From NCBI RefSeq assembly GCF_003334255.1, contig NZ_QOWU01000038.1: a stretch of 49,700 nt of DNA. One strand, given 5' to 3'. A program made the translations under genes and the position numbers. The stretch is from Escherichia coli. GTDB lineage: Bacteria; Pseudomonadota; Gammaproteobacteria; Enterobacterales; Enterobacteriaceae. Shown in pieces: positions 5,003 through 31,287 of this stretch (positions are counted from its first letter, which is position 1; every line of letters begins with the position of its first letter). Under the pieces are notes generated by a model. The model had not been told where the DNA came from. It searched no databases and worked only from the letters and a program-made list of their open reading frames with translations.

Positions 5003-5938
5003 TTAAGCGTAAAATTTCAGACGATCAGCCAGTAAATCAACAAAGCCCTGACGATCAACATCGACCATTACGGTGGCATTCGGTTTATTGCCTGTCAGAT
5101 AATAATAATCAACAACCGTCATACCCTGGGTATATTTCCCCTGTGTTTCCACGCCAACCCAGCGCTCAACAGAGGTAAATAACTCCGGTTTCAACAGCCA
5201 GGCGATGGTGCATGGGTCATGCAGTGGTGCGCCGACAAAGCCCCATTTTTCGTCTTTATGATATTCGAGGAAGAAATCCAGCAGTTCGGCAACAATGGTT
5301 GAAACAGGGTTACCAATCGCGCGGAAACGCTCGGTGTCTTCAACGTGGATTTGTGCTTTATGAGTAACATCCAGACCGGCCATCACCACCGGGATCCCTG
5401 ACTGGAAGACAATTTCTGCCGCTTCCGGGTCAACGTAAATATTAAATTCAGCCGCAGGCGTCCAGTTACCCAGCCCCATAGCGCCACCCATAATCACGAT
5501 ACGGGCAATTTTGCTATGCAGTTCCGGATGGCTATTGAGCAGCAAGGCAACGTTAGTTTGCGGTCCGGTAGACACAATGGTGACAGGTTCCGCACTTTCA
5601 CGCAGCGTTTTCGCCATCAGCTCTACCGCCGTACAGTTTTGCGGTGCGAATGTCGGTTCCGGTAATGCCGGGCCGTCGAGACCGCTTTCGCCGTGCACAT
5701 TGTCCGCGATAATCAACTCACGCATTAACGGTTTTACCGCGCCGCCTGCTACCGGAATATCGGTGCGATTAAGCAAGGTCAGCATACGCAGAACATTGCG
5801 TAAGGTTTTTTCTGGTGTCTGGTTTCCGGCGGAAGACGTAATTGCTTTGACATCAAGCTCTGGTGAGGCGAGGGCGAGAACTATTGCGATAGCGTCGTCA
5901 TGACCTGGGTCGCAATCTAACAGAATTGGCAGTGCCAT
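5003..5938 (-). CDS. rihA: Pyrimidine-specific ribonucleoside hydrolase (IU-NH family)
   Basis: N-terminal [12 protein letters not shown] nucleoside-hydrolase motif; start refined to ATG 5938 (311 aa), preceded by AAGGAG; the track ORF adds 11 codons upstream. Confidence 0.9.
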
Positions 5939-30021: not shown

Positions 30022-30468
30022 TTATTTGCCTTCGTGCGCATGTTCATCTTCGCGGCAATCGCCTTCGGCACAGTGACCGTAAAGATAGAGACTGTGGTTA
30101 GTCAGGCGAATGCCATGTTTTGCGGCAATTTCACGCTGACGCGCTTCGATGGAATCATCACTAAATTCGATAACCTTGCCGCAGTCGAGGCAGATCAGGT
30201 GATCGTGGTGATGTTGCTGTGTCAGTTCAAATACGGATTTACCGCCTTCAAAATTGTGGCGGGTGACGATACCAGCGTCGTCAAACTGGTTCAGTACGCG
30301 ATATACCGTAGCCAGACCAATTTCTTCACCCATATCGATCAGACGTTTGTATAAATCTTCCGCACTGACGTGATGGTTGTCCGGCTCCTGAAGAACTTCC
30401 AGGATTTTTAAACGAGGAAGCGTTACTTTCAGGCCAGCTTTCTTTAGGGCGGTATTGTTATCAGTCAT
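30022..30468 (-). CDS. fur: Ferric uptake regulator
   Basis: 148 aa; MTDNNTALKKAGLKVTLPRLKILEVLQ.. and C-terminal His/Cys-rich metal site. Confidence 0.95.
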   Translation of the reverse strand: MTDNNTALKKAGLKVTLPRLKILEVLQEPDNHHVSAEDLYKRLIDMGEEIGLATVYRVLNQFDDAGIVTRHNFEGGKSVFELTQQHHHDHLICLDCGKVIEFSDDSIEARQREIAAKHGIRLTNHSLYLYGHCAEGDCREDEHAHEGK

Positions 30469-30547
30469 GCGGAATCTGTCCTGTTACTAAGCGGTTCACT
30501 TCATTAGAAGAAGTGACAGAATTTGCTCTTGAGATAATGCGTATCAT
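30461..30547 (-). CDS. uof: Leader ORF upstream of fur (28 codons), translationally coupled
   Basis: MIRIISRANSVTSSNEVNRLVTGQIPHD; stop 30463-30461 overlaps the fur ATG region by 8 nt. Confidence 0.6.
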   Translation of the reverse strand: MIRIISRANSVTSSNEVNRLVTGQIPHD

Positions 30548-30550
30548 TAT
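30532..30550. promoter_or_regulatory. Fur-box-like palindrome
   Basis: gataatgcgtatcattata matches GATAATGATAATCATTATC at 16 of 19 positions and overlaps the uof start codon. Confidence 0.5.
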
Positions 30551-30756
30551 AGAATTGCCACGCCTAAATGAAAACCACAAGTCCCTGGCAAATATTGTTA
30601 ATAAAAACGTGGCACAGCTTACATTTACAACGGCAAGGCCACTTGAACACCGGGACATTGTACAGGTACAACAGCAAAAGTTACAAATTTGTAGCAATTA
30701 TTTTGATTGGCATTATCTATTAATACGGCGTAGACATGAGTCTACGCCGCATCACA

Positions 30757-31287
30757 TCAGGCATTGAGAATTTCGTCGAGATGCAACTCTTCAGAAATCT
30801 GTTTAACCCATTTTTCTACACGTTCAGCGGTCAGTTCCGGCTGACGGTCTTCGTCGATAGCCAGACCGACAAAGTGGTCGTCATCTGCCAGACCTTTTGA
30901 TGCTTCGAAATGATAGCCCGCAGTTGGCCAGTGACCAACGATGGTTGCACCGCGCGGTTCAATGATGTCGCGGATGGTGCCCAATGCGTCGCAGAAATAT
31001 TCGGCGTAATCTTCCTGGTCACCACAACCAAACAGCGCAACCAGTTTGCCGTTGAAATCAATCTCTTCGAGAGTCGGGAAGAAGTCATCCCAGTCACACT
31101 GCGCTTCGCCGTAATACCAGGTTGGGATGCCCAGCAGCAGAATGTCATAAGCTTCCAGATCTTCTTTGCTGCTTTTTGCAATGTCATGGACATCGGCAAC
31201 GTCTTTACCAAGCTGTTTTTGAATCATTTTTGCGATATTTTCGGTATTACCGGTGTCGCTGCCGAAAAAGATGCCAGTGATAGCCAT
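30757..31287 (-). CDS. fldA: Flavodoxin 1
   Basis: Start refined to ATG 31287 ([19 protein letters not shown]-binding loop, 176 aa); the track ORF is extended by 39 codons. Confidence 0.9.

Follow-up and report, generated by a model that had tools for sequence, protein, structure and literature searches.

How does a palindrome resembling a Fur box come to overlap the start codon of the leader ORF that precedes fur, and what is it likely to control there? We addressed this question using a 49,700 nt stretch of Escherichia coli DNA, referred to below as the window. The region of interest corresponds to ybfE-fldA-uof-fur of E. coli K-12, and window coordinates equal those of NC_000913.3 minus 680178. 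The 601 bases around the palindrome are 100% identical to MG1655, and all but one of 5426 complete E. coli genomes (5425) contain them. Three genes on the minus strand are relevant. RefSeq annotation places fldA at 30757-31287 and the fur coding sequence, which specifies 148 aa, at 30022-30468. The third gene is uof (30461-30547), annotated by RefSeq at exactly these coordinates as 'fur leader peptide' or 'RyhB-regulated fur leader peptide'. It begins with the ATG at 30547-30545, has 28 sense codons (MIRIISRANSVTSSNEVNRLVTGQIPHD), among them the UCA codon 6 at 30532-30530, and ends with the TGA at 30463-30461. The first-pass annotation had already described uof as a 28-codon ORF, and here the sequence and RefSeq agree. 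It had also stated that the uof stop overlaps the fur start. The two ORFs do overlap, by 8 nt, but the TGA itself lies 2 nt beyond the fur ATG (30468-30466; ATGACTGA).

The palindrome occupies positions 30533-30551 and thus covers the uof ATG, as had been claimed. Read in the sense of the genes (minus strand, 30551-30533) its sequence is TATAATGATACGCATTATC, which differs from the Fur consensus GATAATGATAATCATTATC at 3 positions. Hence, the 16/19 match proposed at the outset is correct. The plus-strand reading, GATAATGCGTATCATTATA, has 4 mismatches to the consensus as written and 3 to its reverse complement. No other site in the whole 49.7-kb window has 3 mismatches or fewer, and 100 dinucleotide-preserving shuffles produced none. 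Shuffles that kept the local composition (n = 50) also yielded 0 sites at this threshold, and 0.08 sites per shuffle at 4 mismatches. The palindrome contains a perfect 6-nt dyad, with arms ATAATG and CATTAT (30534-30539 and 30545-30550) separated by 5 nt. When the box is compared with GATAAT by hexamer, TATAAT matches at 5/6 positions, GATACG at 4/6 and the inverted ATTATC at 6/6. PMC7867234 likewise refers to this element of the fur promoter as the Fur box, a class of site also termed the iron box. Elsewhere in the window, GATAATAATAATCAACAAC (5098-5116) has a 15/19 match to the Fur consensus. This sequence is of low complexity and lies within the coding sequence of gltK, close to where gltK meets gltL; the match is probably due to chance.

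The best match to a σ70 promoter in the fldA-fur spacer is TTTTCA-17-TATAAT, which agrees with the consensus at 10/12 positions. We refer to this promoter as Pfur. Its −35 hexamer, TTTTCA, is at 30569-30574 and is separated by a 17-nt spacer from the −10 hexamer, TATAAT, at 30546-30551 (both on the minus strand). The first six bases of the Fur box are this −10 hexamer. Furthermore, the uof ATG takes its A and T from the last two −10 bases and its G from the next base (TATAATG). The transcription start sites listed by Kim et al. 2012 (PLoS Genet, Table S1) include NC_000913.2 position 709939, equivalent to window position 30538 on the minus strand, which is preceded by ...TATAATGATACGCA. This start, an A with which uof codon 4 opens, is found 8 nt past the −10 element; the resulting 5′ UTR extends 70 nt to the fur ATG. 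In these data, obtained in a single study under one growth condition, position 30538 has 46 reads, the most in the fldA-fur spacer. The starts upstream of uof have 8 reads and 5 reads, the latter being the 5′ end at 30681 (minus strand). A 28-read 5′ end is also listed at 30475 (minus strand), 7 nt before the fur ATG and downstream of the Shine-Dalgarno sequence; no promoter is evident for this end, which may have arisen by processing.

With respect to the start at 30538, the Fur box spans positions −13 to +6 and the uof ATG spans positions −9 to −7. A box in this position, on the −10 element and the transcription start, has the classical layout of a repressor bound to its promoter; it is the textbook position for an operator. 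This agrees with PMC7867234, where the Fur box overlaps the −10 element of Pfura, both fur start sites are inside the uof ORF and a separate uof start is upstream. The first-pass annotation had not recognised that the box is the −10 hexamer and start of the main fur promoter.

The coincidence of the two elements raises the possibility that the site resembles a Fur box as a side effect of a strong, AT-rich −10 region, since TATAAT is close to GATAAT, and that the site has no real Fur function. We consider this very improbable. It is true that the agreement in the left hexamer (5/6) comes free with any good −10 box. However, beyond the −10 hexamer the site still matches the Fur consensus at 11/13 positions, and these include a perfect ATTATC arm; the 6-nt dyad is also perfect. 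In addition, no shuffle attains the score of the site, and published accounts regard it as fur's functional Fur box. We compared the region upstream of fur in 80 Enterobacterales species. The sequence GTTTTCATTT-N17-TATAATGAnACGCA is nearly invariant across this set, which includes Erwinia, Pantoea, Dickeya and Edwardsiella. The −35 element GTTTTCATTT is conserved in 80/80 species, and the −10 and start region is nearly invariant. Retention of the right arm (ATTATC) is seen in Escherichia, in most Citrobacter, in Enterobacter and Salmonella arizonae, and in a small number of further genera. Outside the genera that keep this arm, the box decays to 5-8 mismatches overall. Conservation of the −10 and start region, with retention of the right arm in a subset of genera only, would fit such a side effect. 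Autoregulation of fur that is reported as only slight or moderate also speaks for that explanation. A further feature of the alignment is the sequence TGAnACGCA that follows TATAA (30539-30545, minus strand, between the −10 and +1 of Pfur). It is nearly invariant among the 80 species, and this conservation exceeds the demands of either a discriminator or the Fur consensus, which prefers AATCA.

Taken together, we are highly confident that the palindrome is the Fur operator of E. coli fur, superimposed on the main σ70 promoter Pfur (furPa). The consensus match, dyad, promoter hexamers, ORF and conservation are from this analysis; the start sites, the two mRNAs and autoregulation are from publications. 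In the mechanism that we propose, Fe2+-Fur at 30533-30551 would compete with RNA polymerase for the −10/+1 region of Pfur and lower fur transcription. The outcome of Fur occupancy would be moderate negative autoregulation. The position of the box points to occlusion of RNA polymerase as the likely mechanism. Footprinting of Fur on the fur promoter, with moderate autoregulation, was reportedly described by De Lorenzo and co-workers in 1988. Fur occupancy of 30533-30551 and its dependence on iron are putative here and are drawn from the literature, the occupancy by way of a secondary citation. Autoregulation of E. coli fur is called slight or moderate in PMC7867234, citing De Lorenzo 1988, and PMC12683245 states that fur is regulated by Fur itself. 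The initial proposal that the box belongs to fur autoregulation is correct. None of fur, uof and fldA appears as a target in the main text of a Fur pan-regulon preprint, and a 2013 review of Fur has nothing on fur's own promoter.

We then considered which mRNAs can carry uof. Northern blots detect two mRNA species, and PMC6191717 places Pfur within uof and Puof upstream of uof. The Puof promoter, TTGTAA-18-TACAAT, is at 30657-30686 (minus strand), as defined by its hexamers and the mapped start at 30650. This start is NC_000913.2 position 710051, with 8 reads, and gives a 103-nt leader to the uof ATG (Kim et al. 2012). The same promoter is listed as a constitutive RpoD promoter of uof-fur (Shimada 2014), and the unit ybfE-fldA-uof-fur is said to be fed by three promoters (Conway 2014). 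Just upstream of the Puof −35 element is a weaker Fur-like site, GATAATGCCAATCAAAATA (30699-30717, minus strand, 14/19). It may be a chance match; about 0.9 such sites are expected per shuffled window.

Because the uof ATG is at −9 to −7 of Pfur, the main fur mRNA does not have the uof AUG. Put another way, the Fur box is the −10/+1 region of the main fur promoter, and therefore the main fur mRNA cannot encode uof. The AUG is missing from the major Pfur mRNA (from 30538) and is found on the Puof mRNA (from 30650) and on read-through transcripts from fldA. Hence, uof is translatable only from the less abundant longer mRNAs, made either from Puof or by read-through from fldA/ybfE. Translation of uof from the Pfur mRNA was considered separately and rejected; this RNA starts with AUU (codon 4) and has no preceding in-frame AUG or Shine-Dalgarno sequence. 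According to the published model of uof (PMC7534054, PMC11448259, PMC12683245), fur translation is coupled to that of uof, uof has a MiaB-dependent UCA codon and RyhB blocks uof initiation. All three of these reported effects would operate on the longer mRNAs. Thus, the statement that fur translation is coupled to uof applies only to the longer, less abundant transcripts. The Fur box is located 100-117 nt into the Puof transcript and also falls in the fldA read-through unit. The first-pass annotation had suggested that its proposal would fail if the palindrome were well inside the transcribed leader with no Fur occupancy. The answer differs between transcripts: the box spans −13 to +6 of Pfur, the position of an operator, and it is also inside the leaders of the minor, longer transcripts from Puof and fldA.

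The overlap with uof also invites a reading in which the palindrome is a joint control point, where Fur, uof initiation and RyhB act on one leader and Fur autoregulation gates translation of the leader ORF. The Fur box does cover the uof ATG, and the longer Puof and fldA transcripts bear the box sequence as RNA. Moreover, RyhB is reported to act on, and block, initiation of uof translation (PMC7534054), which upholds the initial description of the uof start region as a RyhB target. We searched for duplexes in silico using the RyhB sequence of MG1655, with the search restricted to its single-stranded core. A candidate pairing region was found on the RNA at 30516-30545 (minus strand; −12.9 kcal/mol). 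In the predicted duplex, GAGCAA (30528-30523) forms base pairs with the RyhB segment UUGCUC that includes G44 and C45, and GAUAC (30545-30541) pairs with RyhB GUAUU. Hence, the duplex can take in positions 30545-30541 of the box. However, there are several near-equal RyhB sites, and the site at the uof start (−12.9 kcal/mol) is not the best (−13.8 kcal/mol). Predicted pairing at 30545-30516 is therefore weak and only suggestive. Prediction programs also do not reproduce the published model of RyhB pairing with uof.

Further observations count against control at a single point. Fur binds DNA and RyhB binds RNA, and the Pfur mRNA starting at 30538 does not contain the uof AUG. Furthermore, RyhB, acting via G44/C45, lowers the short Pfur mRNA and not the Puof mRNA (PMC6191717), so that the controls are spread over different transcripts. 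The predicted GAGCAA contact is downstream of the Pfur start, which fits this report of G44/C45-dependent lowering of the short mRNA. On balance, we think joint control an unlikely reading. The first-pass annotation had put Fur control and leader-ORF control on the same nucleotides. Physically they do overlap, but the two do not act on one molecule; Fur would act on the DNA, and uof control on the longer mRNAs.

Conservation of the uof frame is limited to some genera. The uof frame, running from the TATAATG ATG to 8 nt into fur (...PHD*), is intact in 36/80 species. Elsewhere in the set, 7 species have a different frame with a TGA overlapping the fur ATG, 24 have an early stop, 4 read on into fur without a change of frame, and 8 lack the ATG. 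Examples of an early stop are Salmonella arizonae, Klebsiella oxytoca and Pantoea; the forms without an ATG have TATAATTG or TATACT. Among the distinct sequences with the spacing found in E. coli (n = 23), the uof frame is open in 23/23 and both other frames are closed in 23/23. Over codons 2-16 of these 23 distinct sequences there is no excess of third-position variation (0.65/0.48/0.57). An open frame in every sequence, together with no concentration of changes at third positions, fits an ORF whose translation matters and whose peptide sequence does not. The promoter string is near-invariant, and the right arm of the box and the uof frame are patchy. This pattern identifies the promoter as the deeply conserved element, with the Fur arm and leader ORF apparently later or more labile additions. 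In Enterobacter sp. R1(2018), Buttiauxella and Dryocola (L055, L056, L058 and L061 of our set), the ATG of TATAATG is in frame with fur, with no intervening stop, at approximately −66 to −69 from the fur ATG. On this basis an N-terminally extended Fur could be specified, but translation from this upstream ATG probably never takes place, since it belongs to the −10 box.

The fur leader also contains a perfect 7-bp hairpin, UCACUUC/GAAGUGA, with a 7-nt loop (30496-30516, minus strand; uof codons 11-18). Among the 80 species, the Enterobacteriaceae (most of L002-L064) have a hairpin with roughly similar spacing to the fur ATG, in many cases with another stem sequence: ACUUCC/GGAAGU, UGCUCC/GGAGCG, CGCUCA/UGAGCG or GCCC/GGGC. 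The mean folding energy, from single-sequence folds, is −7.9 kcal/mol and that of shuffles is −4.5 kcal/mol. These properties suggest that the leader hairpin is a conserved RNA structure. No Rfam families were found in 30380-30800, and RNAalifold returned no consensus hairpin from the 80-species alignment. The latter program missed the hairpin owing to register shifts between the stems as aligned by MAFFT.

We compared the locus with known systems. The operator described for E. coli fur by De Lorenzo et al. 1988, as cited in PMC7867234, is the same DNA, given 100% identity to MG1655, and we find no difference; in both, the box is on the −10 element of Pfura and autoregulation is moderate. Similarly, the uof-fur/RyhB system (Vecerek, Moll and Blasi 2007, via PMC7534054, PMC11448259 and PMC12683245) has the same 28-codon ORF, UCA codon 6, 8-nt overlap and annotation. 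Summaries of uof-fur do not stress that the main fur start is inside uof; the point is made in PMC6191717 and PMC7867234. Classical Fur boxes, such as the operator of aerobactin iucA (consensus GATAATGATAATCATTATC), consist of a 19-bp dyad on −10/+1, as here, and occlusion of RNA polymerase is presumed for them and for the box in the window. Conversely, the box in the window is weaker than the classical boxes (16/19, with a degenerate middle hexamer, GATACG), belongs to the gene of its own repressor and exerts mild control. The putative Fur box of Yersinia enterocolitica fur, TATAATGAGACGCAATTGA (PMC7867234), has the same position on the −10 element, the TATAATGAnACGCA core and weak repression by iron. 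It differs in that the box has 58% identity to the consensus and there is no uof ORF, owing to an early stop after the ATG. Y. enterocolitica thus shares the promoter without uof, which argues that the promoter, and not the leader ORF, is the ancestral feature held in common.

Fur bound at the operator might also form a roadblock for RNA polymerase that has started at Puof or comes from fldA, and so limit the mRNAs that contain uof. The location of the box inside both the Puof transcript and the read-through unit of fldA would allow this, and the 14/19 site at 30699-30717, just upstream of the Puof −35 element, could contribute. The weakness of Fur autoregulation overall counts against it, and we regard such a roadblock as doubtful. 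Both this effect and a Fur-driven shift in the balance of uof-less and uof-containing mRNAs are speculative.

The Fur box, promoter, uof and RyhB link are all already published and annotated for this exact sequence. Hence, the value of the present work as discovery is slight. Its use lies in an anatomical correction, namely that the −10/+1 region of the main fur promoter is what the box consists of. Assignment of promoters to mRNAs is needed for modelling Fur homeostasis and for designing fur reporter fusions. It is conceivable, if improbable, that promoter choice sets the dependence of Fur synthesis on uof. Fur at the box would shut off the uof-less Pfur mRNA and may partly block polymerase from Puof and fldA. 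The proportion of fur mRNA that bears uof would then be larger in iron-replete cells, and its translation would depend on decoding by way of MiaB, which is iron-dependent. The short mRNA, which is sensitive to RyhB, would prevail in iron-poor cells. If this were true, the overlap at TATAATG would be a built-in switch between two modes of translation, and not a coincidence.
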